Assembly: GCA_023415815.1 (NCBI GenBank)
Contig: JAEZJL010000331.1
Coordinates: forward strand, 1 to 39,255
Reading direction: 5' to 3'
DNA length: 39,255 bases
DNA from: Bacillota bacterium
GTDB lineage: Bacteria; Bacillota; Clostridia; Acetivibrionales; DTU013
The notes beneath the pieces were generated by a model. It saw only the letters and a program-made list of their open reading frames with translations. It was not told the origin of the DNA and ran no database searches. Shown one piece after another: positions 4,038 through 39,255 of the stretch (position 1 is the first letter of the stretch; each line of letters opens with the position of its first letter). The position numbers were made by a program, and so were the translations under genes.

Positions 4038-4904
4038 ATGAAAACGAAAATGAGAGTGAAAATATGCGTCCCGGTTGCGGCTGCGATGCTTACGGCGTTG
4101 CTGGGAGCCTGTACCGTCAACGTAAACGGCGATAAGATCAATCTGGACGGAAATATATCCTACACCGAGGGGACAAACCTGACGGAAGAGGAGAACCTGG
4201 CGCAGGACGCGGGGGATGTCACGGCTCTGGAAATAGTCAACAGCGCGGGCAATATCAATATCACTCGCTCCGACTCAAACAACGTGTCCGTTAAAATCAC
4301 CAAGAAGGTGAAGGGCACCGATGAAAACGAAAAAAAGGAAATCATGGAAAACATAAAAATAGAGATGAAGAAGGATGGCGATAAACTGACTCTTTCCGCC
4401 AGGTCCAAGGACGAAAGCGGCTCATACATATGGGACTGGGTGAGCAGGGTGTACAAGTCGGTGACAGTAACGACGGACTACGACATAAAGGTGCCCGAAG
4501 GCGTGAGGATCTATAAGATCGACAATACTGCCGGAAATACGAGTCTTGACGCTGTCAGCGGCGAAATCGGCATAAAGCAGAATGCCGGAGATATCAGGCT
4601 TACCGGAGTGAGCCTCGAGGGAAACAGCAGCTTCACCATGAACGCGGGCAATATAGAACTGGACGCCGCCGTTAATAGGGCCGAAGAGGTCAAAGTAGCC
4701 GGCACTGCGGGTAATATCAATATCAAAATCCCCGAGGGCTCCGGAGTCGATCTCGATACGAATCTTTTGGCGGGAAACCTGTCGGGCAGCTTCCTTTCCG
4801 GTCTGAGCATAAAAAGCGGGAGCTACAAGCAGGAGATCAACGGGGGCGGCACAAGACTTCTGGTGACTTTGACGGCGGGAAATGTTATAATAGACGGCAG
4901 ATAA
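4038..4904 (+). CDS. Lipoprotein with DUF4097-like (putative adhesin / beta-helix) repeats
   Basis: 288 aa. Signal peptide with lipobox LLGAC. Recurring AGNI(N/E/R)(I/L) repeat units (SAGNINITR, NAGDIRLTG, NAGNIELDA, TAGNINIKI, TAGNVIIDG). RBS TGGAGG upstream. Confidence 0.7.
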   Translation: MKTKMRVKICVPVAAAMLTALLGACTVNVNGDKINLDGNISYTEGTNLTEEENLAQDAGDVTALEIVNSAGNINITRSDSNNVSVKITKKVKGTDENEKKEIMENIKIEMKKDGDKLTLSARSKDESGSYIWDWVSRVYKSVTVTTDYDIKVPEGVRIYKIDNTAGNTSLDAVSGEIGIKQNAGDIRLTGVSLEGNSSFTMNAGNIELDAAVNRAEEVKVAGTAGNINIKIPEGSGVDLDTNLLAGNLSGSFLSGLSIKSGSYKQEINGGGTRLLVTLTAGNVIIDGR

Positions 4905-6959: not shown

Positions 6960-6988
6960 TTGACATGAACATGTGTTTGCGGAATAAT
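6960..6988 (+). promoter_or_regulatory. Sigma-A-type promoter of the topoisomerase operon, with an embedded LexA (Cheo)-type box
   Basis: TTGACA (6960-6965), 17-nt spacer, AATAAT (6983-6988). The spacer contains TGAACATGTGTTTG (6966-6979), which matches the GAACAnnTGTTTG seen at uvrB and uvrA. Confidence 0.55.
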
Positions 6989-23131: not shown

Positions 23132-23172
23132 AGAACATTTGTTTGATTTTGAATGCAGGGGTGGTGTATAAT
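23132..23172 (+). promoter_or_regulatory. LexA (Cheo)-type SOS box overlapping the uvrB promoter
   Basis: AGAACATTTGTTTG (23132-23145). -35 TTGATT (23143-23148), 18-nt spacer, -10 TATAAT (23167-23172). Same layout as at uvrA. Confidence 0.7.
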
Positions 23173-23178
23173 AGGTGA

Positions 23179-23222
23179 GGGGACAGTTCTGCAAAGGACT
23201 GTGCCGAGAACTGTCCCCTTTT
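23179..23222 (+). ncRNA. uvrB leader module 1: terminator-like hairpin starting at about +1
   Basis: GGGGACAGTTCT (23179-23190) pairs with AGAACTGTCCCC (23207-23218), followed by TTTT. An alternative inner hairpin pairs CAGTTCT with AGGACTG (23195-23201) around a GCAA loop. Confidence 0.55.
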
Positions 23223-23238
23223 GACGCTAAAGCTGACC

Positions 23239-23281
23239 GGGACAGTTCTGCAAAGAACTGAGCCGGGAACTGTCCCCTTTT
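23239..23281 (+). ncRNA. uvrB leader module 2: tandem copy of module 1
   Basis: GGGACAGTTC (23239-23248) pairs with GAACTGTCCC (23267-23276), followed by CTTTT. Inner alternative pairs CAGTTCT (23243-23249) with AGAACTG (23254-23260) around GCAA. Both modules end in TGTCCCCTTTTGACGCT. A third GGGGGACAGG half-site lies at 23298-23307. Confidence 0.55.
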
Positions 23282-23332
23282 GACGCTGAGGTGCAGCGGG
23301 GGACAGGTTGGGTTGTAAAACGGGAGGAGATT

Positions 23333-25309: not shown

Positions 25310-25324
25310 AAGCAATAGTGAAGA

Positions 25325-25361
25325 GGGTGCGTCGCAGCGATACTGTGCGCATCCTTTTTTA
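25325..25361 (+). terminator. Intrinsic terminator after uvrB
   Basis: GGGTGCG (25325-25331) pairs with CGCATCC (25348-25354) with one G-U pair, followed by TTTTTTAT. Confidence 0.55.
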
Positions 25362-25376
25362 TGCTGCTGCTAATGG

Positions 25377-25454
25377 ATTGGATGGTGCCAAAATATCTGA
25401 ATTGGCTGTTTTCTTCTAAATTAAGTGCTGATATAATTAAATTGGATGATGCCA
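25377..25454 (+). promoter_or_regulatory. Promoter region of the MocR gene with two direct copies of ATTGGATG(G/A)TGCCA
   Basis: Copy 1 at 25377-25390, copy 2 at 25441-25454 (13/14 identical, 64 bp start to start). They bracket an extended -10 TGaTATAAT (25429-25437). Confidence 0.45.
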
Positions 25455-25475
25455 TTTGAACTTTGGAGGGCTTTT

Positions 25476-26996
25476 ATGAAGATCGAGGTCGACAGGGAAG
25501 GCGCTGTGCCGGTTTATTTGCAGATCAGCAGCCAGATCAGGGATATGATACTTTCGGGACGCCTGCCGTCCGGCAGCAAGCTTCCGCCTGAAAGGAAGCT
25601 GGCCGATACGCTCGGCGTAAACCGGAGCACGGTCCTGAATGCCTACAGGGAGCTGAAATCCAAAGGCTATGCCGATTCCTGCGTAGGCAGCGGTACGGTG
25701 GTTGCAAACGCGATGTACAGCCCGGATGCCGGCACAGACGGCTTCAAACCGCTGCCGATGCCCTGGGATCAGCTTTTCAGCGAAAGCGTGTCCAGGACCT
25801 CCGATACGACGGTCAAGGATCTGCTCAAGCAGGCTCCCAACAGGGATATGATATTGTTTGCGGCAGGTGTGAGCGCTCAGGGGCTTGACTCTCTTGATGA
25901 GTTGCTCCGGGTTCAGCAGGAGGTCACCAGGGAATACGGGCATCGGGTAGTAAGCCACATGCCTACCGAGGGCTACCATCCCCTGAGAGAGAGCATCTGC
26001 GAGCTGATGGGAATCAGGGGGATAAACGCCAAACCTTCGGAGGTAATGGTGCTGTCGGGCTCACAGCAGGGGATAGACCTGGCCGCCAGGATATTTCTCG
26101 ACCCGGGGGACGTGGTTTTCGTTGAGGAGCCTACCTTTTTCAGCGCCTTCCAGATATTCCGGACGGCAGGGGCAAGGGTGATCGGGGTGCCGACCGACGG
26201 CGACGGGATGAGGACCGATCTGCTGGCGTCGATGATTGAAAGATTCAAGCCCAAGCTTATCTACACCATACCGGACTTCCAGAATCCCTCGGGCACGGTC
26301 ATGAGCCTGGAGAGACGGAGGCAGCTGCTCTCCCTGGCCTACAGGCATCAGGTGGCGATCCTGGAGGACGACCCGTACGGCCGGCTGAGGTATGAGGGCG
26401 AAGACATACCGCCTCTTAAGACGCTGGACGCACACGGTTATGTAATATATCTGAGCACATTTTCAAAGCTGCTTTTCCCCGGCTTTCGCGTGGGCTGGCT
26501 CGCGGCTCCGGCCGCGGTGCTGGACCGCTTCACTCTGCTGAAGCAGAACGCGGACCTTCACACCTGCAGCCTGACGCAGCTCGTCTTCAACAGGTTTATA
26601 CGCGAGGGACTCCTGGAGGGGCAGATCCGGCGTGTAGCAAGCGAAAACGCCCTGCGGAGGGATATAATGCTTGACGAGCTTGAGAAGACCGCGGTCAGGG
26701 GGATGCGCTGGGCAAGGCCCGAGGGCGGCCTCTATCTGTGGTGCGGGCTTCCGGAGGGGATATCGCAGCCAAAGCTGCTTGCAAAAGCCTCGGAATACGG
26801 AGTAGCTTTTGTCCCGGGCAGCGTTTTTTACCCGAACAGGCCGGCAGGCAGCTATATAAGGCTGAATTACACCTATCCCTCGCCCGAGCTTATAAAGGAG
26901 GGCGTGAGGCGTCTGACAAAAGCCGTGAGGCACGTTTCGTCGGAAAACAGGAGTGGAACGGATGAAACCGATCTGGACCTCCGGTCGCTGGTTTGA
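25476..26996 (+). CDS. MocR-family regulator (GntR wHTH fused to a fold-type I aminotransferase-like domain)
   Basis: N-terminus VPVYLQISSQIRDMILSGRLPSGSKLPPERKLADTLGVNRSTV (GntR wHTH). C-terminal PLP-fold motifs IPDFQNPSG and STFSKLLFPGFRVGW (Lys). GGAGGG RBS supports ATG 25476 rather than 25446. Confidence 0.85.
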   Translation: MKIEVDREGAVPVYLQISSQIRDMILSGRLPSGSKLPPERKLADTLGVNRSTVLNAYRELKSKGYADSCVGSGTVVANAMYSPDAGTDGFKPLPMPWDQLFSESVSRTSDTTVKDLLKQAPNRDMILFAAGVSAQGLDSLDELLRVQQEVTREYGHRVVSHMPTEGYHPLRESICELMGIRGINAKPSEVMVLSGSQQGIDLAARIFLDPGDVVFVEEPTFFSAFQIFRTAGARVIGVPTDGDGMRTDLLASMIERFKPKLIYTIPDFQNPSGTVMSLERRRQLLSLAYRHQVAILEDDPYGRLRYEGEDIPPLKTLDAHGYVIYLSTFSKLLFPGFRVGWLAAPAAVLDRFTLLKQNADLHTCSLTQLVFNRFIREGLLEGQIRRVASENALRRDIMLDELEKTAVRGMRWARPEGGLYLWCGLPEGISQPKLLAKASEYGVAFVPGSVFYPNRPAGSYIRLNYTYPSPELIKEGVRRLTKAVRHVSSENRSGTDETDLDLRSLV

Positions 26997-27146
26997 ATAA
27001 GCCAGACACAGGACAGGATTTGATATTAAGATGCAATGAACGGAAGAAACATGTCCATGCACATGTTCTAAAGAGGTACCGTCTGCTTGAAGGGGAGGGT
27101 GCCGTTTATATATCCAAACAATTTTAAATGAAAGAGGCGGAATATA

Positions 27147-28340
27147 ATGAGCGTGAAATTTGCCGACAGGATGCAATTCATGAAGGCTTCCGAAATACGG
27201 GAGCTGCTGAAGGTCACCGAGCAGCCCGAGATGATCTCGTTCGCGGGAGGCCTCCCGGCGCCGGAACTTTTTCCGGTGGAGGCCCTAAAGGACATTACGG
27301 TCAGAGTTCTTGCCGAGTCCGGCATGCAGGCGCTGCAATATGCGACAACCGAAGGCTTTACGCCTCTCAGGGAAAAAATCGCGTCCAGGATGAACATTAA
27401 ATACCAAACACGTCTGTCGCACGACAATATCCTCATTACCAGCGGCTCGCAGCAGGGCCTGGACCTCACGGGCAAGGTCTTTCTGAATGAAGGGGACGCC
27501 GTCCTGTGCGAGAGCCCCACCTATCTCGGGGCCATAAACGCTTTTGCAGCATACAGGCCCAGAATGCTTGAGGTCCCGACCGACGACGAGGGCATGCTCA
27601 CGGACGAACTGGAAAAAATCCTCGACTCCGTCGAAAATATAAGGCTCATATACGTCATACCCGACTTCCAGAATCCGAGCGGCAGGTCCTGGTCGCTTGA
27701 ACGGCGCAGGAGGTTTATGGAGATCGTCGGCAGCCGGGGAATACCCGTTCTTGAGGATGCCCCATACAGCGAGCTGCGCTTTGAGGGCGAGCTGCTGCCC
27801 CCGTTGAAAGCCTTCGACACTAATGGGCTCGTGATCTATCTCGGCACCTTTTCCAAGGTGTTCTGCCCCGGGATGCGCATAGGATGGGTGGCCGCAGACA
27901 GGGATATCCATGAAAAATACATCCTTGTCAAGCAGGGAGCGGACCTCCATTCGTCAGGACTTGTACAGCGCAACATTTCCATGTATATGGACCTGCACGA
28001 TCTGGACGAGGATATTGAAAGGCTGAAGGAGGTCTACAGGAGCAGGAGGGACGTCATGCTTGCAGCTATGAAGGCGGAGTTCCCCGAAGGAGTCAGGTAC
28101 ACATTTCCGGGCGGAGGGCTTTTTACCTGGGCCGTGCTGCCGGAATGCATCGACGCCTACGAATTGCTCGAGGAGTGCCTGAAAAGCAATGTCGCCTTCG
28201 TGCCCGGAGGCTCGTTCTTCCCGAACGGCGGCGGAAGGAACACCATGAGGCTGAATTTTTCAAACATGCCCGAGGACCGCATCGAAGAAGGCATAAGAAG
28301 GCTGGGACGGATGCTCAGGGCCCGCCTGGACCTCAATTAA
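27147..28340 (+). CDS. PLP-dependent aminotransferase, class I/II (2-aminoadipate/aromatic aminotransferase-like)
   Basis: 397 aa. IPDFQNPSGRSWSLERRR and GTFSKVFCPGMRIGW (PLP lysine) motifs. Clearly paralogous to the MocR C-terminal domain. Confidence 0.85.
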   Translation: MSVKFADRMQFMKASEIRELLKVTEQPEMISFAGGLPAPELFPVEALKDITVRVLAESGMQALQYATTEGFTPLREKIASRMNIKYQTRLSHDNILITSGSQQGLDLTGKVFLNEGDAVLCESPTYLGAINAFAAYRPRMLEVPTDDEGMLTDELEKILDSVENIRLIYVIPDFQNPSGRSWSLERRRRFMEIVGSRGIPVLEDAPYSELRFEGELLPPLKAFDTNGLVIYLGTFSKVFCPGMRIGWVAADRDIHEKYILVKQGADLHSSGLVQRNISMYMDLHDLDEDIERLKEVYRSRRDVMLAAMKAEFPEGVRYTFPGGGLFTWAVLPECIDAYELLEECLKSNVAFVPGGSFFPNGGGRNTMRLNFSNMPEDRIEEGIRRLGRMLRARLDLN

Positions 28341-28561
28341 GGCCGCTGACTGAGGAAGGCAATGCCCGGTAAATACACCCTTGCCGTTATATACTGCAAC
28401 AAGGGCGTTACCGGAAATGAGGGTGCAAAGCGATGAATTTACAAAAGTATATCATTTCTCGCGCGGATATAAGCACTATAGCAAATTGCATAGTAAAAAA
28501 GATATCCAAAAGAATACGTGCACCGGTATGACCTCACGACCCGTCGCAATGGGCCCAAGCG

Positions 28562-29506
28562 TTACGGCGTAATTCCCGTTTTAACCAGTATGTTCTCCCT
28601 GTAGACTGAAAGCAGCTCCGTGATTACGGCTTCGTCCGTTATCCTCGGTATATAAGGGCTGCCCGCTGCGCAATAGCCCGCCGGAATCCCATGTATGCGC
28701 TCCAATATCATCTTGATGGCGGGCAGCGAGCCTATGTGCTTCGGACCGTACGCCTCCGAGAAGTTATTGGCGCGGTACTGGAGCTCGCGCGCCTCCCTGT
28801 ATTTCCCCTGTTCCATCAGCTTCTGAATCTGTTTGTAATGGTAGCAGGTTATTGCCTGCAGGCTCCCGATATTTCCGTCCGCACCCATCAGCATCGAGCA
28901 GACGGCCAGCTCGTCCGCGCCTGTGAGGATATTCAGGCCGGGGGCGTGCTTCTTGAAGCGTTCGAGCGTAAAAAAATCGTTGTCGGTAAATTTTATTCCC
29001 TTAAAGGTAGGGACGGCTTTCATCGCCTCCAGCATTTGAGTGACGCCGACCTTCTCTCCGCCGGAGGTAAACGGATTCGCCGAAACCCAGTAAATATAAA
29101 AGGGGACGTGCGGCGCCGCTTCGGATATCTGTCTGAAATATTTCACATTCGCTTCCAGCGAGACTCCCGGAAGGCCTACCGAGGCTACGGCATATGCGCC
29201 GTGCTCTGCGGCGTGGCGGGCAAGCCCGACCGAGTCGTCCGGGTTTTTGTTATAGCCTACATGTACGAAGACGGGCAGTCTCTCCTTGCTTGCCCTTAAA
29301 ACTGCTTCGGCCCACAGCATGCGCCTTTCCACCGTAAGCGACATCCCTTCGCCCGTCCAGCCCAGCATATACAGCCCGTCCGCTTCCTCTTTCACATAAT
29401 AATCGATCAGCGGCTCCGCAAGATCGGTGAGTATATCGCCTCTTTCGTCCATGGGCGTAATCAGGGCGGGTACGGTACCGGTAATTGCTTTATACACCTG
29501 CATCAC
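28562..29506 (-). CDS. DHDPS / N-acetylneuraminate lyase family class I aldolase
   Basis: 314 aa. GWTGEG motif region. Schiff-base lysine context FKGIKFTDNDFFTLERFKKHAP, which resembles my memory of NanA-type GVKFT...LER sequences. Substrate not assignable. Confidence 0.75.
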   Translation of the reverse strand: MMQVYKAITGTVPALITPMDERGDILTDLAEPLIDYYVKEEADGLYMLGWTGEGMSLTVERRMLWAEAVLRASKERLPVFVHVGYNKNPDDSVGLARHAAEHGAYAVASVGLPGVSLEANVKYFRQISEAAPHVPFYIYWVSANPFTSGGEKVGVTQMLEAMKAVPTFKGIKFTDNDFFTLERFKKHAPGLNILTGADELAVCSMLMGADGNIGSLQAITCYHYKQIQKLMEQGKYREARELQYRANNFSEAYGPKHIGSLPAIKMILERIHGIPAGYCAAGSPYIPRITDEAVITELLSVYRENILVKTGITP

Positions 29507-29814
29507 TCCTATTTCTCATAATGCCTTTATTGTATGAATAGAAGCGCACTCCTGTAAACATCCAGTTCTTTGGATCAAGGTGCCTGTTTTCCGTGCAAAA
29601 GGCAAAAGGGGCCGATACGTCTGAGACATTTATCATCCGCAGGGCAAACAGACACCTGAATCTTAAAATCTGGGTATTTACGCGCAGCTTTAACGGAAAG
29701 TACAATTAAAAGCGGGAAATGTGAATGCGTCCGGCAAACCGGCGTCATATTTCTCCGGCCGGCGAATGAAGCTTCAAAAAATGCTCCGAAACAACTTAAT
29801 AATAACAAGGAGGT

Positions 29815-31155
29815 ATGAAAATGGCAAAGAAAAGACTGTTCCTCTGTATGCTGACCTGCATCGTCGCAATCTCCATGCTCACATCCTGCTCGGGAAACGC
29901 GCAGCAATCCGGCGCATCCGTACCCTCCTCCTCGGTTCAGGCGCCCGCCTCAGCGGCTCCGGCGGAGAATACCTCAGGCCCAAAGGTAAAGCTGCTTCTC
30001 TATCATTATATGGGCGAAATGGCGGATTATCTGAACGGCTTTTGTGAAAAGTTCAACGCAGAGCATCCCGACATCGAGCTCGGGACGGAGCTGCAGAAGG
30101 ATTCCTCCACCCTGCAGATCAAATACGCAGCCGGCGAAGATCCGGATATTGTGTTCGGCGCCGCATCGCAGAAATACATAGACCTGGGCAAATACCTGGA
30201 CTATACGCCGCATAGCGACTGGCTGGACAGGGTGGACCCGGTGATGAAGCAGCTTTTTACCGATGTCAAGACCGGAGGCATCTATAAGCTTCCGATGGGA
30301 AGGGGCTGCACGGGGGTCTTTTACAACAAGAAGATCTATGACGAGCTCGGGCTGAAGCCCGCGCTTACCTGGGAAGAAATGCTGGACAACCTGAGGGCCA
30401 TAAAGAAGGGAAAACCGGACATAACTCCTTTTTACATCGTATCCGGGGATTACTTCAACATGACGCTGTATGTCCCTTACGGGCATAAAACCATGGACCT
30501 GGGCATTGTTGCTATGAAGAAGGCGGTGTCGGCAAACGATAAGGCGGCATTGGACTGGGCCAAAGCAGGGGGCTATATGGAAGCCTTCGCACAGAACCTG
30601 CTGGACATGAAGGCCGAGGGGCTCATTGACAGCGAGCTTGCCCTGACCTCCACCCAGGAAATGCTCTCCGAGGCCTTTGCAACCGGCAAGACCGCCACGA
30701 CCATCACCGGCACCTTCTGGAGCGGCCCGCTGCTCAGGCAGTTCCCGGACGTGGCGGAATTCATCGGCGTCGCCCCGCTTCCGTCCCTGGACGGCAGAGG
30801 CGGATACATCGGCTCAAGCTCCGACAGCGCGGTATCCATGTCGGCCGTCAGCAAGCACAGGGATGAGATATTTGCCGTCGTCGATTACCTTTTCAAGGTT
30901 GAGAATCTGAAGAACTACTGCTCGGCAAGGCGTGTAGCCTGCTCCTTCAAGGACGTCCAGATAACCGACTGGAGCCCGATCGCTGGACAGATACAGGATC
31001 TCTGGAGCAAATACCCCAACCTTGCCGCGCCGGACATCCCCACGGGCTTCCCTACCTCCGAGTGGTCGAAGCTGGGGCAGGAGCTGATCGTAGGCTCTTA
31101 TACGGCAAAGGATTATGCCGGAAAATTCAATGAAAAATGGAACGCCGCCTATTAG
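29815..31155 (+). CDS. CUT1-family ABC transporter solute-binding lipoprotein
   Basis: 446 aa. Lipobox LTSCSG plus a Ser/Ala/Pro linker. AGGAGG spacing favours the second ATG at 29821. Confidence 0.85.
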   Translation: MKMAKKRLFLCMLTCIVAISMLTSCSGNAQQSGASVPSSSVQAPASAAPAENTSGPKVKLLLYHYMGEMADYLNGFCEKFNAEHPDIELGTELQKDSSTLQIKYAAGEDPDIVFGAASQKYIDLGKYLDYTPHSDWLDRVDPVMKQLFTDVKTGGIYKLPMGRGCTGVFYNKKIYDELGLKPALTWEEMLDNLRAIKKGKPDITPFYIVSGDYFNMTLYVPYGHKTMDLGIVAMKKAVSANDKAALDWAKAGGYMEAFAQNLLDMKAEGLIDSELALTSTQEMLSEAFATGKTATTITGTFWSGPLLRQFPDVAEFIGVAPLPSLDGRGGYIGSSSDSAVSMSAVSKHRDEIFAVVDYLFKVENLKNYCSARRVACSFKDVQITDWSPIAGQIQDLWSKYPNLAAPDIPTGFPTSEWSKLGQELIVGSYTAKDYAGKFNEKWNAAY

Positions 31156-31210
31156 AAGCTTGAGCAGCCGGGACTGCGGCTGTAAAGGCGCTGAGCGGTA
31201 AACCTGAGCG

Positions 31211-31240
31211 TTTGGGGCATGGAGCGGTCCATGCCCCAAA
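31211..31240 (+). other. Perfect 12-bp intercistronic stem-loop after the binding-protein gene
   Basis: TTTGGGGCATGG (31211-31222), loop AGCGGT, CCATGCCCCAAA (31229-31240). No U-tract follows. Confidence 0.6.
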
Positions 31241-31260
31241 TAATAAAATGGGGATATGAT

Positions 31261-32145
31261 ATGGACAGTATATACAATAAAATCGGCAGGAATCTGTACA
31301 GAGGCATGGCGCTTCCTGCAATCCTCCTGTTTTCCTTTTTCTTCATCCTTCCGCTTGGACAGGGGATAGGCATCAGCCTCACCGACTGGGACGGCTTCGG
31401 CGAGCCGAAGTACATCGGCGTAAGCAACTTCGTCACCTTTTTCGCGGATTCGCGCGCCATAGGCGCCCTGCTGCACACGCTGCATTACGGCCTGGTGACG
31501 CCCGTCATACTCAACGTCGCCGGACTGGTCTGCGCGCTCCTGCTGGATAAGCCGCTTTTCGGCAAGAATGCGGCCCGCGTCCTCGTCTACCTTCCGGGAG
31601 TTATCAGCTCCCTTGCCATCGGCTACATATGGCGGATCGTGCTGATGCGCGACGGCGGGGCGCTGCATGACATAATGACCTTCATGGGTCTTGGGGAGTA
31701 TTTCAAGGTATGGCTCAGTATGCCCGACCAGGCGATGTGGATGATCATCGCCGTCAACGTGTGGCAGCATACGGGCGGCGCAATGATCATCTATCTGGCA
31801 GGGATGCAGACCATTCCCGTGGAGCTTTTCGAGGTGAGCCGGATCGACGGCGCCAATTACTGGCAGAGCCTGAAAAACATCACCATGCCGCTGCTTATCC
31901 CGGCAATCAAGATCAACATCATATTAAACCTGATCGGTTCTCTGGCGGTGCACGACAGCGTCGTCGCCCTGACGGACGGGGGGCCCGGATACCATACCGA
32001 AACGCTGGCGGTCTATATTTACAACATGGCCTTCGGGACAAAGACCGGGTATGCAACGGCGGTGGCGCTTATCATGTTTGTGATCATCGCCATACCGACA
32101 ATGGCGACATACAGGTATCTGTCCTCTAAAAATGTGGAAATGTAG
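31261..32145 (+). CDS. Sugar ABC transporter permease (MalF/UgpA-like)
   Basis: The ORF-track start 31219 lies inside the stem-loop, so ATG 31261 (MDSIYNK...) is preferred. EAA-type loop FEVSRIDGANYWQSLKNITMP. Confidence 0.85.
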   Translation: MDSIYNKIGRNLYRGMALPAILLFSFFFILPLGQGIGISLTDWDGFGEPKYIGVSNFVTFFADSRAIGALLHTLHYGLVTPVILNVAGLVCALLLDKPLFGKNAARVLVYLPGVISSLAIGYIWRIVLMRDGGALHDIMTFMGLGEYFKVWLSMPDQAMWMIIAVNVWQHTGGAMIIYLAGMQTIPVELFEVSRIDGANYWQSLKNITMPLLIPAIKINIILNLIGSLAVHDSVVALTDGGPGYHTETLAVYIYNMAFGTKTGYATAVALIMFVIIAIPTMATYRYLSSKNVEM

Positions 32146-32991
32146 GTGGCGCACATGGGCAAACTAAAAATAAAGGAAATAGGACCGAAGCTTTTCAACT
32201 ATCTGGCGATGCTGCTGCTGTGCGTCATCGTGATCATCCCGTTTTACGTTTTGCTGTTCGTCGCGCTCAACCATCCCTCAAGGCCGCTCTCCATGGGAGT
32301 TTTCACCATGCCGGAGATTGCCTTCGACAACATAACCGAGGCCTGGAACAGGTCGAATATGTACCGGGCCATGCTGAACTCGATGTATATCACGGTAGTG
32401 GCAAGCACAATCGTGGTGGTGCTGGGAGCGTCGGCCGGATACGTGTTCGCGCGCTTTCCGAACAGGTTCAACAGATTTTGGTTCAACCTTTTCCTGATGT
32501 GCATGATGATACCCGGCATTATCAACACCGTGCCGCTGTATTCGGTCATGCAGAGGATCAACGGGAACAATAACCTGTTTATGGTGGCGGTGCTGCTGAG
32601 CACGCTCCGGCTTCCCTTCTGCATCTTTTTATACACGTCCTTCATAGAGTCGTCGGGACGGGAAGTAGAGGAAGCCGCGGTTATAGACGGCTGCAACCCC
32701 TTCACCGCCTTTTGGAGGATAACCATCCACATCCTGAAGCCCGTTACGGCAACGGTGATCATTACAAGCTCGGTGGGCTTCTGGAACAACTACAGCCAGG
32801 CTGTCTTCTTTCTTACAAAAAGCGAACGCCAGACGATCCCCCTTGCCATGCGCTACTTCTTCAGCGAGTTCAGCGCCGAGTGGAATCTGGTGGCCGCAGC
32901 CGCCATGATAGGGATCATCCCGGTAGTCGTCATGTTCCTGCTGCTGCAGAAGTATTTCATTAAAGGCCTTGCGGCCGGAGCGATAAAGTAG
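32146..32991 (+). CDS. Sugar ABC transporter permease (MalG/UgpE-like)
   Basis: 281 aa. EAA-type loop VEEAAVIDGCNPFTAFWRITIH. ATG 32155 is an alternative start to GTG 32146. Confidence 0.85.
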   Translation: MAHMGKLKIKEIGPKLFNYLAMLLLCVIVIIPFYVLLFVALNHPSRPLSMGVFTMPEIAFDNITEAWNRSNMYRAMLNSMYITVVASTIVVVLGASAGYVFARFPNRFNRFWFNLFLMCMMIPGIINTVPLYSVMQRINGNNNLFMVAVLLSTLRLPFCIFLYTSFIESSGREVEEAAVIDGCNPFTAFWRITIHILKPVTATVIITSSVGFWNNYSQAVFFLTKSERQTIPLAMRYFFSEFSAEWNLVAAAAMIGIIPVVVMFLLLQKYFIKGLAAGAIK

Positions 32992-33026
32992 GGGCAGCCA
33001 ATATAAAATGAAATGGAGCGATAGCT

Positions 33027-33830
33027 ATGGATAACAACAACGGGTATTTCGGACAGGCAGATAAACGCCGCCATAAAAATCTCAAGGAAATGGTCGACAG
33101 GGGCATAATTCCGGTGGGCGTGGGCATAAGCATACCCTCTCCGGTCATTGCGGAGTACGCGGCTCTGGCGGGATACGATTTCGTATCGCTGGATCTGGAG
33201 CATGGGCTATATAATATGGAAACGGTCTGCAACATCATACGCACCGCAGACTCCTGCGGCCTTGCGACCACTGCGCGTGTGGCCGACAAAAAACTGATAC
33301 TCCCGCTTCTGGATTTCGGCCTGGTAGGCGTGGCGGTCCCGCATGTGCGCTCCGCGGCACAGGCAAGAGAGCTCGTGGAGATAACCAAGTACAAGCCGGT
33401 GGGACGCAGGGGCTTCAATTCCTCCGGAAGAGCCCACAGCTATGGGAAAAAGCCTTTCCTGGACTGTGCGGAGGAGGCTGCCGGGGAGATAACGCTTGCA
33501 GTGCAGATTGAGGACCTTGAGGGCCTTAAAAATGTCGAGGAGATCCTGGCGGTACCCGGCATCGACTATCTGCAGCTCGGCCCGGGGGACCTGTCGGCGG
33601 ACCTGGGGCATCCCGGAAACGATAAGCACCCGGACGTGCTTGCGGCTCATAAAAAAATCCTTAAAACGGCTGATAAATACGGAGTGAAATACTTCGGGAA
33701 CGGAGCCCCGATCTCGATCGTAGAGGACAAATCCTTCCTGATCCGGGCGTTTACCCAGGCCAGGGAGGGGATACACGAAAGGGCAAAGGCCATGTTCGAG
33801 GCGGATATGATGCTGATAGCAAACGCATAA
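33027..33830 (+). CDS. HpcH/HpaI family class II (metal-dependent) 2-keto-3-deoxy / 4-hydroxy-2-oxo acid aldolase
   Basis: 267 aa. AGYDFVSLDLEHG, PHVRSAAQA, VQIEDLEGLKNVEEILAVPGID and LGPGDLSADLG motifs are typical of this family. Confidence 0.75.
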   Translation: MDNNNGYFGQADKRRHKNLKEMVDRGIIPVGVGISIPSPVIAEYAALAGYDFVSLDLEHGLYNMETVCNIIRTADSCGLATTARVADKKLILPLLDFGLVGVAVPHVRSAAQARELVEITKYKPVGRRGFNSSGRAHSYGKKPFLDCAEEAAGEITLAVQIEDLEGLKNVEEILAVPGIDYLQLGPGDLSADLGHPGNDKHPDVLAAHKKILKTADKYGVKYFGNGAPISIVEDKSFLIRAFTQAREGIHERAKAMFEADMMLIANA

Positions 33831-33849
33831 CCGCAATACGGGCGCGGCA

Positions 33850-33872
33850 GGCAGGGCGGTATCCGTCCTGCC
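33850..33872 (+). terminator. GC-rich hairpin after the aldolase gene (possible terminator lacking a U-tract)
   Basis: GGCAGGGCGG (33850-33859) pairs with CCGTCCTGCC (33863-33872) with one G-U pair and a 3-nt loop. Confidence 0.3.
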
Positions 33873-33932
33873 GTCCTTGCGTCCGGGACGGCGCACCCGG
33901 CATTTGCCCTGTCCGGCAATGGAGCGGGGCTT

Positions 33933-33961
33933 TTGAAAGTAGTGCAGGGATAATGTATAAT
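33933..33961 (+). promoter_or_regulatory. Sigma-A-type promoter for the two-component operon
   Basis: TTGAAA (33933-33938), 17-nt spacer, TATAAT (33956-33961). Confidence 0.6.
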
Positions 33962-34021
33962 ATATGCAGGCATGTCCATGAATGTACGGCGGATCCATAG
34001 AAGTTTGTATATCAAGCGGGG

Positions 34022-35815
34022 ATGGAAGTGGTCGGACTGAATATCAAAGCAAAATTCATACTAACCTCCATAGTTACTTTTACGATTGCCATCATTATTA
34101 TTTCCGCCTATATGTACTACGAGTACACCGACTCGTACAGCGACCAGGTAAATGTTGCGGACAGGCAGATTTTGAGCCAGCTTTCCTACAATCTGGACAT
34201 CTACCTCGACGAGATTTACCGTCTGACCCTGCTGCCCTATTACAATGAAGCCGTGCTTGAACAGATGAGAAACGGCAATGCCGATACCCTGCAAAAAAAA
34301 TATATTAAAAAATATACCATCGAGGGCTTCCTGAACAATACCCTGCTCTTCCCGAGAAGGGATATCCAGAGGGCGATCATCATTTCCAACGGCCTCTATT
34401 TTTCCGAGTGGAACTCCAATTCAATCCTTACCTATGAGCAGCAGATAAATTCCGACTGGTACAAAAAAATCTGCGAAGAGAAAAAACCCATGGTCCTCCT
34501 GCCCGGGAGCGAGGGCGCCGAGCGCCCGTCAAAAAACCCTTCGTTTTCGGTGATAAATACCATCCAAAACACGAACAGCGACTTCTCCATTCTGGGAATC
34601 ATCCGGGTGGAAGCCAACTACAACACGCTGAAGGATTTGTGCAGCAAGGTGTATATGGGAAATGAAGGAGGAGTGATGATCCTTTCCGAGGATAACGCGG
34701 TGATCTATGCCAGCCTTGATATTGAAAGGATGCCGTCTCTTCTGGAAGAGATATCCGGGTTCGGCGGCGGGACCGAGCTCCAGGGCTATCATCACAACGG
34801 CAGCCTGATAAACAGCGTTTCCCTGAGTCATTTCGGCTGGAGGCTCGTTTCGGTAAATTCTCTGGATACAATGAAAGCTCAGCTGAATAAAATACGCAAA
34901 ACCATTCTTTTAGGAGTATGCTTTACTTTCCTGTGCACCTCCGTGCTGCTTTACCTGATGATGTCCAGATACTTCAAGCCCTTTTACCGGATCATCGATC
35001 TGATGAAAACGGCCAGGAGAGGCTTTTCCTCCGTCAGGTATCACGGGGAGTCCAGGGATGAGTTCGGATATCTGGGCAATACGCTCAACAGCATGCTTGA
35101 CAATCTCAATGAAATGTACGAGCAGAACGCGGAGCTCGATAAAAAGATATACAATGCCCAGCTTTTCCAGCGCGAGACGGAGATCCAGCTTTTATACAGC
35201 CAGATCCGCCCCCATTTCATTTACAACACCCTGAACATGATAAGCATACAGATACAGACGGAGCAATTCGACGAGGCGGTGGACAGCATCAACAAGCTCA
35301 GCCTTTTGATGCGCGGCGTCGCATATATAAATAAGGAAATTCCCCTTAAAATGGAGCTTGCAATTATCGATTCGTACCTGTCCATCCAGAAATCGCGGTA
35401 CGGTGACAGATTGAGCTTTACGGTCGATATCGACAAAAGTCTCGAGAATTTTGTACTTCCTTCGCTGATCCTGCAGCCTGTAATTGAAAATGTGGTAATG
35501 CACTGCTGCGAGCATACGCACCGGAAGGTGCACATAAGCATATACAGCCTGTTTACCGACCGGAATGCCCAGATCAACGTCGAGGACGACGGCGAGGGCA
35601 TCAGCGCGGAAAAGCTCGAGGAGCTTAACCTGAACCTGCTTGGCGGGCAGCCGGACAAAAGCCGGTTTATAAACGACCTTTCCAAAGCCGGCGGACTTGG
35701 ACTCGCAAATGTGAACACCAGGCTGAAAATGCGCTTCGGCGAAGCGTACGGCCTTCATGTCGAGAGCATCCCCGGAAAGGGGACGACGGTGAAGGTCCTT
35801 CTGCCCTGCGCATGA
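34022..35815 (+). CDS. YesM-like sensor histidine kinase (TM, large extracellular domain, TM, HAMP, His_kinase/LytS-type, HATPase_c)
   Basis: 597 aa. Phosphoacceptor region LYSQIRPHFIYNTLN. ATPase motifs LQPVIENVVMH, DDGEGI, GGLGLANV. Confidence 0.85.
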   Translation: MEVVGLNIKAKFILTSIVTFTIAIIIISAYMYYEYTDSYSDQVNVADRQILSQLSYNLDIYLDEIYRLTLLPYYNEAVLEQMRNGNADTLQKKYIKKYTIEGFLNNTLLFPRRDIQRAIIISNGLYFSEWNSNSILTYEQQINSDWYKKICEEKKPMVLLPGSEGAERPSKNPSFSVINTIQNTNSDFSILGIIRVEANYNTLKDLCSKVYMGNEGGVMILSEDNAVIYASLDIERMPSLLEEISGFGGGTELQGYHHNGSLINSVSLSHFGWRLVSVNSLDTMKAQLNKIRKTILLGVCFTFLCTSVLLYLMMSRYFKPFYRIIDLMKTARRGFSSVRYHGESRDEFGYLGNTLNSMLDNLNEMYEQNAELDKKIYNAQLFQRETEIQLLYSQIRPHFIYNTLNMISIQIQTEQFDEAVDSINKLSLLMRGVAYINKEIPLKMELAIIDSYLSIQKSRYGDRLSFTVDIDKSLENFVLPSLILQPVIENVVMHCCEHTHRKVHISIYSLFTDRNAQINVEDDGEGISAEKLEELNLNLLGGQPDKSRFINDLSKAGGLGLANVNTRLKMRFGEAYGLHVESIPGKGTTVKVLLPCA

Positions 35816-35853
35816 GGCCTTAATAATATCGGTGATAACAGGAGGGCTTTTCC

Positions 35854-37497
35854 GTGATAAAGGTTATGGTAGTTGACGATGAATTTGCAACCAGGAATTT
35901 TTTATGCCGCAAGGTCCCGCAGCTAAACGCGGAATGCGTGGTAGTGGGCAGCGGAGCCGACGGCAGGGAAGCGCTCGAGCTGCTGGAGAGCACCGGTGCG
36001 GACCTTGTCATAACGGACATCAAGATGCCCGTCATGGACGGCCTTGAGCTGTGCAGGGAAATCAGGAGCAGGTATCCCGGGATTTTCACCGCCATACTGA
36101 GCGGATACGGCGAATTCGACTTTGCGCGGCAGGCGATCCGGAACGGCGTTTCCGATTTCCTGCTGAAGCCTATCGTCAACGATCAGCTTAAATGCCTGCT
36201 GGACGCTATGAGGGACAGGATAAGGCTTCAGTCGGAGCAGCGGATGAAGCAGCTGAAAAGCGAGGAGCGGGTCAGCAGGACGTCGGAGTGGCTGGTCTGC
36301 AGCTATATAAAATCGGCGGCTCTCGGCCGGAAGGCGGAGACGGCTTCCTGCAAAGCCCTGCTGGAAGAGCTGGACATACAGCTGTACGACGGCCCCTTCA
36401 GTTATTTGCAGTTTTCAATGGCGGCCGGTCTGTTTTCTTCCTCATATAAATATTTCTCCAGCTTCGCGGAGCCGGGGAATGAGCTCCCAAAAGCCGTGGC
36501 AAAAGCCGCCGGAGCGCTCGGAGGATATGTTTTCAGCGATTCGTACGGCAATGTCGCCCTGCTGGTCCCCACCCCGGATGAAAAGCATTTCTGCCGGACG
36601 GCGGAGTCGGCGTATCAAAGGGTTGCTTCCAATCTGCCCTCCGGATCCGGTGAAATAAGAGCCGCCGCAGTTTTCGCCGGGGAGACGGGAAAGCTTTCCG
36701 CGGCTTATGAGCAGGCCGGGAGCCTGGCCTTCTCCGACACCCGGAAGCCGGTCGCCTGCTTCATACCGGAGGTGCATTTCTTCCCCGAGCCCGACTGTAT
36801 GCTGGTTACCGATAAGGAGTACCAGCGGCTTTCAGATATTAAAAAGGGCGTGCGGACGCTCCGGGCGGCGGTATCGGACGGCGACAGCCTGACGGTTTCC
36901 GCCTCTGCCGGCGAGCTCTTTTTGCTGATAAGCAAAGCCATGCCGGATAAAACTCCGGGGGAAAAATTGTACGGCATCGGGATAGCCGCTTCGCTCTGCT
37001 TTGAGGAGGGGCGCTCCGGGCAGTGGCTTGACGAAATGGCGCAGCTTTCCCGCGACTGCGATCGTATTTCTGCTTTAGGGCAGGAGGAGATCCCCGGAGA
37101 ATTGACGGACCGGTTCGTCAGGCTGCTGTGGGGGCTGAAGGACAGGGAAATAAGCGACCGGCCTTCGAGCAGCCGTATTGTGGAGAGCGCCAGGGATATC
37201 ATTCTGAACAATTACCGCCGGCCTGTGAGCCTGTCTTCGGTTGCCGGACAGATCGGCGTTTCGTCCAATTACTTGAGCGACGTGTTCAGCAGGGAGACCG
37301 GGGAGACGTTTTTAAAATACCTGACCGGGGTGCGCATGAGGATTGCCGCGCATTATGTGGAAAGCAAGCCTTTGATGAGCATGAATGAAATTGCGGAGAA
37401 AACCGGGTATGTGAGCTCAAAGCACTTCCTGCACATATTCAAAAAGCACTTCGGCATGACGCCCTCGGATTACCGGCGGAAGATTAAGGGTCATTGA
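35854..37497 (+). CDS. YesN-like response regulator (REC domain + AraC/XylS-type HTH output)
   Basis: 547 aa. REC motifs MVVDDE, LVITDIKMPVMDG, LLKP. C-terminal AraC HTH (SSNYLSDVFSRETGETFLKYLTGVRM...GYVSSKHFLHIFKKHFGMTPSDYR). GTG start with a GGAGGG RBS. Confidence 0.85.
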   Translation: MIKVMVVDDEFATRNFLCRKVPQLNAECVVVGSGADGREALELLESTGADLVITDIKMPVMDGLELCREIRSRYPGIFTAILSGYGEFDFARQAIRNGVSDFLLKPIVNDQLKCLLDAMRDRIRLQSEQRMKQLKSEERVSRTSEWLVCSYIKSAALGRKAETASCKALLEELDIQLYDGPFSYLQFSMAAGLFSSSYKYFSSFAEPGNELPKAVAKAAGALGGYVFSDSYGNVALLVPTPDEKHFCRTAESAYQRVASNLPSGSGEIRAAAVFAGETGKLSAAYEQAGSLAFSDTRKPVACFIPEVHFFPEPDCMLVTDKEYQRLSDIKKGVRTLRAAVSDGDSLTVSASAGELFLLISKAMPDKTPGEKLYGIGIAASLCFEEGRSGQWLDEMAQLSRDCDRISALGQEEIPGELTDRFVRLLWGLKDREISDRPSSSRIVESARDIILNNYRRPVSLSSVAGQIGVSSNYLSDVFSRETGETFLKYLTGVRMRIAAHYVESKPLMSMNEIAEKTGYVSSKHFLHIFKKHFGMTPSDYRRKIKGH

Positions 37498-37510
37498 CCG
37501 TGAGACCGTG

Positions 37511-37547
37511 AAAAATCAGGTGTGCCTGTGCGCCTGATTTTTTTCTC
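37511..37547 (+). terminator. Intrinsic terminator after the response-regulator gene
   Basis: AATCAGGTG (37514-37522) pairs with CGCCTGATT (37531-37539) with one G-U pair, followed by a T-run to 37547. The A-run on the 5' side could make it bidirectional. Confidence 0.75.
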
Positions 37548-37556
37548 AATAAAATT

Positions 37557-37596
37557 CGAACAAGTGTTTGCATTTTAAAAACAACTTGGGTATAAT
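37557..37596 (+). promoter_or_regulatory. LexA (Cheo)-type SOS box overlapping the uvrA promoter
   Basis: CGAACAAGTGTTTG (37557-37570). -35 TTGCAT (37568-37573), 17-nt spacer, -10 TATAAT (37591-37596). Confidence 0.75.
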
Positions 37597-37601
37597 AGTG
37601 A

Positions 37602-37653
37602 GGGGACACACCTCTCCCGCCGACGGACTGAGCGTCGAGGAATGTCCCCTTTT
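37602..37653 (+). ncRNA. uvrA leader module: terminator-like hairpin homologous to the uvrB leader modules
   Basis: GGGGACA (37602-37608) pairs with TGTCCCC (37643-37649), with inner CCTC/GAGG and CGACG/CGTCG helices, followed by TTTTGACGCTGAAGCT. Additional GGGACACACTTCTCCCGCCG (37670-37689) and GGGGACAGGG (37689-37698) half-sites lie downstream. Confidence 0.55.
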
Positions 37654-37769
37654 GACGCTGAAGCTATTTGGGACACACTTCTCCCGCCGGGGACAGGGCT
37701 CTGGGTTGGTTCAATATAGATGCGAGGCGGATTGGACTTGATTTTTATTATTGACAGGCAGGTGCTTAT

Positions 37770-39255
37770 ATGACTACAAACAGTATTTTTATCAAGGGCG
37801 CGAGGGAGCATAACCTCAAAAACATCGATGTGGAGATACCGAGGGACAAGTTCGTCGTGATTACCGGCCTCAGCGGTTCGGGCAAATCCTCGCTGGCCTT
37901 CGACACGATCTACGCCGAAGGGCAGAGGCGCTATGTGGAGTCCCTCTCGGCCTATGCAAGGCAGTTCCTCGGCCAGATGGAAAAGCCCGAGGTGGACTAT
38001 ATTAACGGGCTTTCGCCGGCAATCTCGATAGACCAGAAGACCACCAGCAGGAATCCGCGTTCGACCGTCGGCACGGTCACGGAGATATACGACTATCTAA
38101 GGCTTCTTTATGCGCGTATCGGAATACCGCACTGCCACATCTGCGGCAAGGAGATAAGTCAGCAGACCGTCGACCAGATGGTGGACGGCATCATGAGCAA
38201 GGAGGAAGGGACCAGGATACAGCTGCTGGCGCCCGTGGTCAGAGGCAGGAAGGGCGAGTACCACAAGCTGATAGAGGACGCCAGGAAGAACGGCTACGTG
38301 AGGGTCCGGGTCGACGGAGAGGTAAGGGAGATAACGGAAGAGATCAATCTGGATAAAAACAAGAAGCACACCATAGAAATCGTTGTGGACAGGCTGATAG
38401 TAAGACCGGATATGCATAAAAGGCTTGCGGACTCCATCGAGACCGCCCTGCACCTGAGCGGAGGCTTGCTGGTGGTCGACGTGACGGGCGGCGAGGAAAT
38501 GCTTTTCAGCCAGAATTTTGCCTGCAGCGACTGCGGGGTGAGCATCGAAGAGCTGACCCCAAGGATGTTCTCCTTCAACAACCCCTATGGCGCCTGCCCC
38601 ACGTGCAGCGGCCTGGGGACGCTTCTCAAGATGGACCCGGACCTGATCCTGCCCGACCGGACCAAATCCCTTTCCGGAGGGGCGATAAGGGTGGGCGGCT
38701 GGAATTCGGAAAACGAAGACAGCTACGCCAGGATGTTCATCAACGGTCTTGCAAAGCATTACAGCTTCAGTGTAGACACTCCCGTAAACAAGCTATCCCC
38801 GGAAATTGTGGATATCATACTCTACGGCACCAAGGGTGAAAAAATACAGGTCGCCTATGAGAAGGAATACGGCAGCGGGACCTTCCACTCCGCTTTCGAG
38901 GGCGTAATAAACAGCATGGAGAGACGCTACAAGGAAACGCAGTCGGACGGGATGAAGCAGTATTACGAGGAATTCATGAGCAGCAATCCCTGTCCGGATT
39001 GCAAGGGCGCCAGGCTGAAAAAAGAGAGCCTTGCCGTGACCATAGGCGGCTGTAACGCACACGAGCTGACCTGTATGCCCGTGCTTGACGTCAGGGGATT
39101 TTTTGCGGACCTGAAGCTCAGCGAGCGGGAAAACTTGATTGCGCACCAGATATTGAAGGAAATCAACGCAAGGATAGGCTTCCTTGTGGACGTGGGGCTC
39201 GATTACCTGACGCTGTCGAGATCCGCAGGCACCCTCTCGGGCGGCGAGGCCCAGC
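37770..39255 (+). CDS. uvrA: Excinuclease ABC subunit A, 5' part (continues beyond the window)
   Basis: My own translation from ATG 37770 gives [73 protein letters not shown]..., with the zinc-finger CHICG...CSDCG. The frame stays open to the end of the window, which explains its absence from the ORF track. Confidence 0.95.

Follow-up and report, generated by a model that had tools for sequence, protein, structure and literature searches.

Why should two genes of one DNA repair pathway, uvrA and uvrB, begin with the same hairpin-bearing leader? The question arises from a contig of 39,255 nucleotides of a Bacillota bacterium (GenBank assembly GCA_023415815.1, contig JAEZJL010000331.1), the whole of which is called the window here. 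A first-pass annotation had described a promoter and leader module upstream of uvrA that recurs at uvrB, and had taken this sharing as an argument for a function specific to the pathway. We find that the module belongs to a dispersed family, present in uvr leaders only within the close lineage of the window (UvrB identity of at least 96%), and that it is a recent insert of variable copy number lying directly behind a pre-existing LexA-controlled −10 element. The uvrA module is probably one copy of an undescribed interspersed repeat of uncultured Clostridia, similar in kind to REP, MITE and SPRITE elements, which entered after the −10 in a single lineage and is likely to act as a 5′ hairpin and weak terminator.

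The hairpin module at uvrA and uvrB

All features described here lie on the plus strand. The uvrA module region extends from the TATAAT through a third left-arm remnant (37591-37709). The promoter, of sigma-A type (TTTGCA, 18 nt, TATAAT; 37567..37596), scores 10/12; its −35-like TTTGCA (37567-37572) overlaps the LexA/Cheo-like box CGAACAAGTGTTTG (37557..37570), and its TATAAT (37591-37596) is at the same time the −10-like head of the repeat unit in the family logo. The left flank TATAAT-AGTGA(G) (37591..37601), for which the family consensus is TATAAKGTRAG, leads into the module 1 hairpin (37602..37649). Here an outer stem of left arm GGGGACA (37602-37608) and right arm TGTCCCC (37643-37649) is followed by a C.A/A.A internal loop, a CCTC/GAGG helix and an apical CGACG/CGTCG helix, with GGACTGAGC in the loop region. 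Directly after TGTCCCC comes TTTTGACGCTGAAGCT, up to 37665, in which the family alignment places a T4 tract and the conserved tail GACGCTGAAGCT (37650..37665). A truncated second unit, GGGACACACTTCTCCCGCCG, consists of a left arm only (37670..37689) and matches the module 1 left arm at 19 of 20 positions; the third left-arm remnant, GGGGACAGGGCTCTGGGTTGG (37689..37709), resembles the right end of the uvrB array. The native leader then resumes with GAGGCGGATT (37724..37769), which can be aligned by eye to the module-free leader TATAATaggaGAGGCGAATTc of a relative (L148) and has a Shine–Dalgarno sequence, AGGTG, near 37760. The 5′ part of uvrA (37770..39254) starts at the ATG at 37770 and runs off the window; the leader is about 168 nt long, assuming that transcription starts at the hairpin.

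The uvrB leader is laid out likewise: two full units are followed by a partial arm that closes the array (23167-23315). A LexA-like box, AGAACATTTGTTTG, and a promoter (TTGATT, 18 nt, TATAAT) at 23132..23172 precede module 1 (23179..23234; hairpin 23179-23218) and module 2 (23241..23290; hairpin 23241-23277), each hairpin being followed by T4 and the tail. The closing left arm GGGGGACAGGTTGGGTTG (23298..23315) lies ahead of the Shine–Dalgarno sequence and ATG (23333) and, as had been noted, is paralleled by GGGGACAGGGCTCTGGGTTGG at uvrA. Counted in units, the uvrA leader holds 1.3 and the uvrB leader 2.3; Tandem Repeats Finder, run on the window, left the uvrB pair unreported, with fewer than two good copies. 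Every element that the first-pass annotation had listed for the uvrA leader, from box, −35 overlap and arms to helices, tail, the 19/20 repeat and the extra left arms, is present where it had been placed.

The homology proposed between the two modules is likewise supported, since the shared strings exceed chance. The exact string TGTCCCCTTTTGACGCT occurs three times in the window against 0.12 expected, and GGGGACA-N20-50-TGTCCCC twice against 0.00. A covariance model of the unit matched only the three modules, at 72.4 bits (uvrA) and 71.0 and 39.1 bits (uvrB), the next-best match in the window reaching 8.6 bits (E = 1.9). The uvrA hairpin folds at −24.7 kcal/mol (z = −3.35 against shuffles) and the uvrB hairpins also exceed their shuffles (z = −5.60 for module 1, −3.03 for module 2); the whole 178-nt uvrA leader is no more stable than shuffles (z = 0.17). 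Covariation was assessed over 31 distinct modules, with the structure fixed from the conserved ends. The seven outer stem pairs are invariant. Further in, pair 21:58 is C-G in 24 modules, U-A in 7 and unpaired in none, and pair 24:55 is C-G in 14 and U-A in 8. Cells with double changes number 21, compared with 7.1 in shuffles, a value that 0 of 500 shuffles reached, and all controls in which the structure was slid were far worse. These compensatory changes bear out the suggestion that the hairpin structure is under selection. The 2×2 internal loop (C.A, A.A) is kept in about 25 of the 31 modules and is Watson–Crick-closed in the uvrB type.

Two further proposals did not hold. The GGACTG(A/T)GC core, thought to be conserved, is confined to one sub-type of the family. 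Pairing of the downstream left arms with the TGTCCCC right arm, put forward as an alternative structure, lies at shuffle level (−17.4 kcal/mol, z = −0.20), and these copies stand 3′ of the U-tract; a role for them as antiterminators was rejected, the logo marking them as closing partial units found family-wide. We also discarded a loop–tail pseudoknot (uvrA loop AGCGUC with tail GACGCU), for which the mean best helix over the 31 modules was 5.0 nt against 4.92 when shuffled, and both a start-stop mini-ORF (ATG-TAA in TATAATGTAAG) and peptide coding, neither of which is kept in the TAAGGTGAG class, the array periods of 59, 67 and 69 being out of frame. Against Rfam 15 the window had no match at the gathering threshold, and a search of the two leaders with E allowed up to 10 yielded only chance snoRNA and miRNA matches with E above 1.

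A dispersed repeat behind ancestral LexA-type promoters

The LexA-box promoter claimed for uvrA is genuine and is conserved at both uvrA and uvrB in relatives. The uvrA box, GAACAAGTGTTT, has one mismatch to a GAAC-N4-GTTC-like palindrome and, overlapping the −35, is a predicted LexA site; only three GAAC-N4-GTTY sites exist in the window, all of them in promoters. LexA-like boxes stand upstream of uvrA and uvrB in L066-L074, L146-L148 and L153 (L numbers denote loci from other genomes). This promoter is ancestral and does not depend on the hairpin module.

The module itself shows presence/absence polymorphism at orthologous sites. In the relative with 97% UvrB identity (L061, L150) the uvrB leader holds three units and the uvrA leader at least 2.8 identical 67-bp units, the contig ending inside the array; the distinct interiors of the uvrA and uvrB modules are each kept. 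The 96% relative (L063-L065) has one unit and a decayed unit at uvrB, with a compensatory change (GGGACAT.../...ATGTCCC), its uvrA lying outside the fetched loci. At 90% identity (L147, L153/L154) the uvrB leader is empty and uvrA is not in the locus, at 87% (L148/L149) and 86% (L146) both leaders are empty, and in a relative with 84% UvrA identity (L155) the uvrA leader is empty and uvrB is not in the locus. Leaders are thus filled at UvrB identities of 96% and above and empty at 90% and below with the promoter intact: those of L146-L148 and L153/L154 keep the LexA-like box and TATAAT at unchanged spacing. No covariance-model match was found in 640,520 bases from 80 further metagenome uvrA loci (identity up to 83%). 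Conservation of the module at the two genes across species is therefore absent beyond relatives of at least 96% UvrB identity. The UvrA search gave mostly truncated proteins of no more than 85% identity, and the close relative's uvrA leader was reached through the neighbouring response regulator. The metagenome-assembled genome (MAG) that contains the empty L146 site carries the family elsewhere (L029, L060).

Alignment by eye suggests that the window insert lies between TATAAT-AG and GAGGCGGATT (37724), at a site that reads TATAAT-AGGAGAG-GCGAATTC in L148. The ancestral discriminator TATAAT-AGGAGAG resembled the family head, as a comparison with L029 illustrates (TATAATAAGGAGAG directly before GGGACAC). 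The repeat may have come in by insertion or conversion at a target similar to its own head, and this similarity could be a reason why both uvr promoters were hit. Locally, units multiply into head-to-tail arrays, which mostly end in a partial left arm. Three contigs of the 97% relative end inside uvr arrays (L150 11751-11939, L151 9430-9466, L062 1-28), the L150 array having a period of 67 and 2.8 copies that stay 100% identical as far as the end of the contig. Short-read assembly evidently breaks at tandem units, and copy numbers from MAGs are hence lower bounds.

To survey the family, we scanned one genome per species, 185,579 species in all, with the pattern GGGACA-N20-50-TGTCCCCTTTTGAC. 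The scan gave 60 loci, about 23 of them evident homologues and the remainder chance matches or unrelated palindromes. All homologous loci come from uncultured Bacillota MAGs labelled Hungateiclostridiaceae, Oscillospiraceae, Clostridiaceae or just Bacillota, and they score 40-83 bits with the covariance model. Fuzzy and covariance-model searches inside the 8-kb loci revealed further arrays, about 7 in roughly 170 kb or one per 25 kb. Besides the uvr leaders, the unit is found at about 27 sites in at least 10 Bacillota MAGs, and several genomes hold two to four loci. The family thus has what defines a dispersed repeat in general, namely multiple homologous copies (some 30 arrays) at unrelated loci of related genomes. 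A literature search by motif strings returned no description of it, only unrelated primer matches.

In the logo of 30 arrays the unit begins with the head (g/T)(G)nTATAAKGTRAG, with G at −5 in 30/30 and A at −2 and G at −1 in 28 each. Among 11 perfect-TATAAT heads, five have a TGn extended −10 and four have a −35 match of at least 4/6, a weak excess over the 15% of control TATAATs. The hairpin of 40-55 nt has a nearly invariant base, GGGGACAC..(A/T)ATGTCCCC, and an interior that varies between copies yet stays paired; it is followed by T4, the conserved tail GACGCTAAAGC and 4-5 variable bases. The inverted repeat corresponds to the stem base, but conserved sequence reaches beyond the stem asymmetrically. 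Units of about 67-80 bp form head-to-tail arrays with periods of 59-69 bp, and a partial arm, GGGAC(A)CACC, closes around 60% of the arrays. Three interior sub-types can be distinguished, the GGACTG(A/T)GC sub-type being limited to the window lineage, L060 and L048. Orthologous sites are occupied across MAG species, sometimes by different sub-types (L015/L030, L056/L058, L035/L053, L022/L035). By eye, right junctions sometimes resemble the left flank, as in uvrA TATAGATGCGAG, L054 and L056. A phage origin was rejected: scanning viral contigs gave one match, in a coding region and lacking the left arm, which we regard as chance.

Neighbouring open reading frames were called with a simple script, and ten were checked with Pfam. 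The checked neighbours include thymidylate kinase (tmk), CheW (cheW), a GT2 glycosyltransferase, DapB (dapB), an M29 aminopeptidase, a C26 glutamine amidotransferase (C26 peptidase), a flavodiiron protein, a PHP phosphoesterase and an amidohydrolase; proB, a glycerophosphodiesterase, phosphoglucomutase, a diacylglycerol-kinase-like gene, an iron alcohol dehydrogenase and the smpB-ssrA spacer were named from reading alone. No repair gene adjoins the roughly 27 other sites, neither uvrA nor uvrB occurs within those loci, and a GAAC-N4-GTTY box lies within 100 nt of 0/27 arrays outside the window lineage. These sites at unrelated genes, devoid of a LexA-like box, remove the argument that sharing by two repair genes signals a pathway-specific function; a genome-wide association with repair genes, on which the first-pass annotation had made that argument depend, is absent in related genomes. 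About 21 of 26 sites are co-oriented with a neighbouring gene and five are antisense to both neighbours. Many copies follow stop codons inside operons and do not stand at promoters, and at about eight sites the stop codon of the upstream frame lies within the conserved head (TAA of TATAAK or TGA of GGTGAG). At the dapA-dapB junction the repeat is sense in L014 and antisense in L001. Since the dapA stop is supplied by the repeat in both orientations, there must have been either two independent insertions at the same gene end or an inversion in situ; the codon is the TGA of GGTGAG in L014 (~4196-4206) and the TAG of the reverse-complemented tail GCTTTAGCGTC in L001 (~4397-4404).

Several observations stand beside these. 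In the smpB-ssrA spacer, units lie antisense to both genes (L022 5936-6016, L035 4215-4280), and the head abuts the mature 5′ end of tmRNA, CTTACAATAT being joined there to GGGGGCGTA. The closing partial arm GGGACACACC continues into AG-rich heptamer microsatellites (CAGAAGT, CAGAGAC, CACAGAT) in L005 (minus strand, after 6399), L015 (5250-5400), L029 (5190-5320), L009 and L023; in L015 the microsatellite pairs with a TCTCTGA-rich arm ending in GGAATGTCCCCTTTTGACGCT, giving a giant module with a microsatellite hairpin as its interior. Six matches to the scan pattern (L024, L026, L032, L033, L041, L055) are perfect palindromes of the form GTCAAAAGGGGACAGTCCC...GGGACTGTCCCCTTTTGAC. They span unrelated phyla (Lachnospiraceae, Atopobiaceae, Polyangiales, Gammaproteobacteria), with two sites in L026, and may represent a separate, widespread terminator-like palindrome or convergently evolved bidirectional terminators. 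The third LexA-like box of the window, GAACATGTGTTT (6967-6978), abuts a perfect TTGACA upstream of a GyrB/ParE-like and TopoIV/GyrA-like pair (reading frames 7021-9003 and 9056-11254), with no hairpin module. The 97% and 96% relatives have an identical promoter here, and L146 lacks the box; the arrangement suggests that the type II topoisomerase pair is under SOS-type control. Finally, uvrB and uvrA lie side by side in the 86% relative (L146 11977-12146), and in the 87% relative (L148 11977-15156) two aminotransferase genes stand between them. In the window lineage about 12 kb lie between them (25310-37500), holding aminotransferases, a dihydrodipicolinate synthase-like gene, a sugar ABC transporter, an HpcH aldolase and a histidine kinase with an AraC-type regulator, which looks like stepwise insertion.

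Possible function and competing explanations

The first G of the hairpin should be the start point of transcription from the TATAAT, to within 1-2 nt, and the mRNA should hence begin with a stable stem-loop. On this basis the uvrA and uvrB mRNAs are predicted to open with a stem-loop of −20 to −26 kcal/mol followed by U4. Such a hairpin could act in cis as a weak intrinsic terminator (attenuator), its effect being multiplied by the number of units, and it might also or instead shield the 5′ end of the mRNA from 5′-exonucleolytic decay, a protection in keeping with what is generally known of mRNA decay in Firmicutes. SOS induction through LexA would remain the regulatory input, with the array only scaling the output. 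The AraC-type response-regulator gene upstream of uvrA (stop at 37497) has its own canonical terminator, a hairpin and T-run read from the sequence at 37513..37545 and also kept in L150, so that this gene can end without the uvrA module. A regulated attenuator is unlikely, because nothing forms upstream of the +1 hairpin, no downstream structure competes with it (z = −0.20) and there is no pseudoknot signal.

A number of points weigh against a terminator-like interspersed repeat of this kind. Only four T residues follow the stem, below the 5-of-8 rule, and a consensus scan calls no terminator at the uvr modules; moreover, 0 of about 26 sites lie between convergent genes, the usual place of terminators. 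Termination by the module is accordingly doubtful. There is no consistent target duplication or clean element boundary, and no transposase has been established, none having been searched for. The antisense hairpin is more stable than the sense hairpin in 24 of 31 modules (P = 7e-5), hinting that the bottom strand, single-stranded DNA or some role at the DNA level matters. The better folding of the antisense strand, which goes with a G.U count of 44 against 20, is mainly due to one conserved, inherited C.A position. We infer further copies in the window's own organism, of whose lineage about 50 kb was read; within this sequence there are only two arrays, both at uvr promoters, a placement that would come about at random roughly once in 300 (about 25 intergenic regions, counted post hoc). 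Arrays are carried by two of three LexA-box promoters and 0 of about 22 others, and by this post-hoc count chance alone does not explain their presence at both uvr promoters. Target similarity, selection for co-ordinated damping of the nucleotide excision repair genes, or chance are all possible causes of the two insertions.

The alternative that survives best is a purely DNA-level selfish element, in which a REP- or PATE-like hairpin in single-stranded DNA is moved by an HUH/Y1-type or other transposase and any effect on RNA is incidental or neutral. The presence/absence polymorphism and the opposite orientations at one junction would be expected of such an element, the GTRAG head before the palindrome recalls the GTAG tag of REPs (PMC3733652), and a stem mismatch is conserved that makes the bottom strand fold better. 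The co-orientation of about 80% of copies with genes also equals the usual bias of genes towards the leading strand. In Firmicutes this gene bias is around 80%. However, the T4 that adjoins the stem shows high conservation, different species keep both the occupied orthologous sites and the pairing, and the arrays are head-to-tail, an arrangement that REP dimers almost never show (PMC3733652); no transposase was found, though none was looked for. We regard this explanation as unlikely, while giving it some weight.

It is rather improbable that the repeat represents a mobile cassette of promoter-proximal type, made up of an extended −10 head, a hairpin at +1 and a weak terminator, which in the window lineage was co-opted so that its rapidly changing tandem number tunes the SOS-induced output of uvrA and uvrB together. 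A cassette of this sort would target −10/+1 junctions and junctions of stop codon and Shine–Dalgarno sequence, and a dedicated hairpin-binding protein, recognizing the invariant stem base and the C.A/A.A loop, might read it. If so, the unit number, from 1 to at least 3, would be a heritable tuning knob on the level of excision repair. Genuine co-option of the repeat for uvr regulation appears a little less probable still.

The explanation from which the question started, a regulatory leader specific to repair or the SOS response (attenuator or riboregulator) that co-ordinates uvrA and uvrB, is very unlikely. Both uvr genes and nothing else in the window carry the module, its structure is maintained by covariation, and the 97% relative has kept it at both genes. 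Nevertheless, it is missing from uvr leaders at UvrB identities of 90% and below and from the 80 further uvrA loci, and the unit adjoins at least 15 kinds of unrelated genes that have no LexA box. Furthermore, no upstream antiterminator exists, downstream pairing is at shuffle level, loop and tail give no pseudoknot signal and no Rfam family matches. We likewise find it hard to credit that the GGGGACA/TGTCCCC inverted repeat is a double-stranded DNA operator for a repressor just downstream of the promoter: it does occur at +1 of two promoters, but the distance between half-sites differs among copies (25 to more than 40 bp), covariation in the interior preserves a hairpin, and many copies follow stop codons inside operons rather than promoters. 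A recent segmental duplication or gene conversion limited to the two uvr leaders can practically be dismissed, since, although the arrays share their ends, the GGACTG(A/T)GC sub-type and a similar right end (GGGGACAGG..GGGTTGG), their interiors are completely different yet each kept in the 97% relative, and the family census places the unit in many other genomes and contexts.

Overall, a covarying leader common to two repair genes gives no evidence for a repair riboregulator if its unit is a genome-wide repeat. The interspersed repeat described here, apparently an undescribed family of uncultured Clostridia of cellulolytic type, has an unusually well-defined architecture. Its arrays break metagenome assemblies, the family could serve as a lineage marker, and arrays at promoter +1 positions or on stop codons may be a common, fast-evolving modifier of expression in these organisms.

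Relation to known repeats and stem-loops

The nearest analogue is SPRITE of Streptococcus pneumoniae, a terminator-like interspersed repeat described in 2011 (PMC3049150). Both are short Firmicute repeats of narrow lineage that lie near genes and combine a long stem, flanked by A/T runs, with a U-containing tract, and neither has a known transposase. SPRITE has an AT-rich composition, a stem of 18 bp and a long U-rich tract; it does not form arrays and is enriched between convergent genes (PMC3049150). The uvr repeat family, unlike SPRITE, has a GC-rich stem base, only U4, a −10-like head, the GACGCTAAAGC tail and head-to-tail arrays, and it lies upstream of or between co-directional genes, with 0 of about 26 sites convergent.

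With REP, BIME and REPIN elements (PMC3733652, PMC2817692) the family shares dispersed, intergenic, imperfect palindromes next to a short unpaired tag (GTAG there, GTRAG here), as well as high copy number, sub-families within a genome, clustering and intragenic insertions at 3′ ends. REPs are 20-40 bp long and tagged with GTAG or CGTC; their dimers are head-to-head or tail-to-tail, and a RAYT gene flanked by REPs belongs to the system (PMC3733652). They are reported mainly from Proteobacteria, and a large survey found none in Firmicutes (PMC3733652). Despite its similar GTRAG head, the present family does not fit this description, its units being about 67-80 bp long and strictly head-to-tail; a RAYT gene was not searched for.

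A dispersed repeat at a uvrB promoter has a precedent in the Correia element, a MITE of Neisseria, which brings a sigma-70-like −10 to the gonococcal uvrB promoter, among those of many genes, according to a citation of Black et al. (1995) in PMC10969869. As far as that account goes, it indicates that such a repeat need not be specific to repair. The element is there given as 100-155 bp long, with 26-bp terminal inverted repeats, a TA duplication and an IHF site (PMC10969869). It is also described as supplying a promoter, whereas here the −10 and the LexA box already exist in empty sites. The uvr boxes themselves resemble the Cheo boxes (GAAC-N4-GTTC) of Firmicute LexA (DinR) promoters, with CGAACAAGTGTTTG over the −35 and conservation at uvrA and uvrB in relatives; they are independent of the hairpin module, being present in module-free promoters and absent from other module sites.

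For function, the closest comparison comes from the same broad group of organisms. In Ruminiclostridium cellulolyticum, GC-rich and U-poor internal terminators set expression ratios (PMC9045158), and for the internal terminators and SRPS (selective processing and stabilization of RNA) stem-loops of cellulolytic Clostridia both partial termination and transcript stabilization have been demonstrated (PMC9045158, PMC8219983). The hairpins of the uvr repeat family are like these stem-loops in their GC-rich stems, their U-poor tails and their location between co-directional genes, and by analogy with them we infer a similar mode of action. The two differ in that the latter are individual and non-homologous, whereas the uvr repeat is a sequence family with conserved flanks that is found at promoter +1 positions as well.

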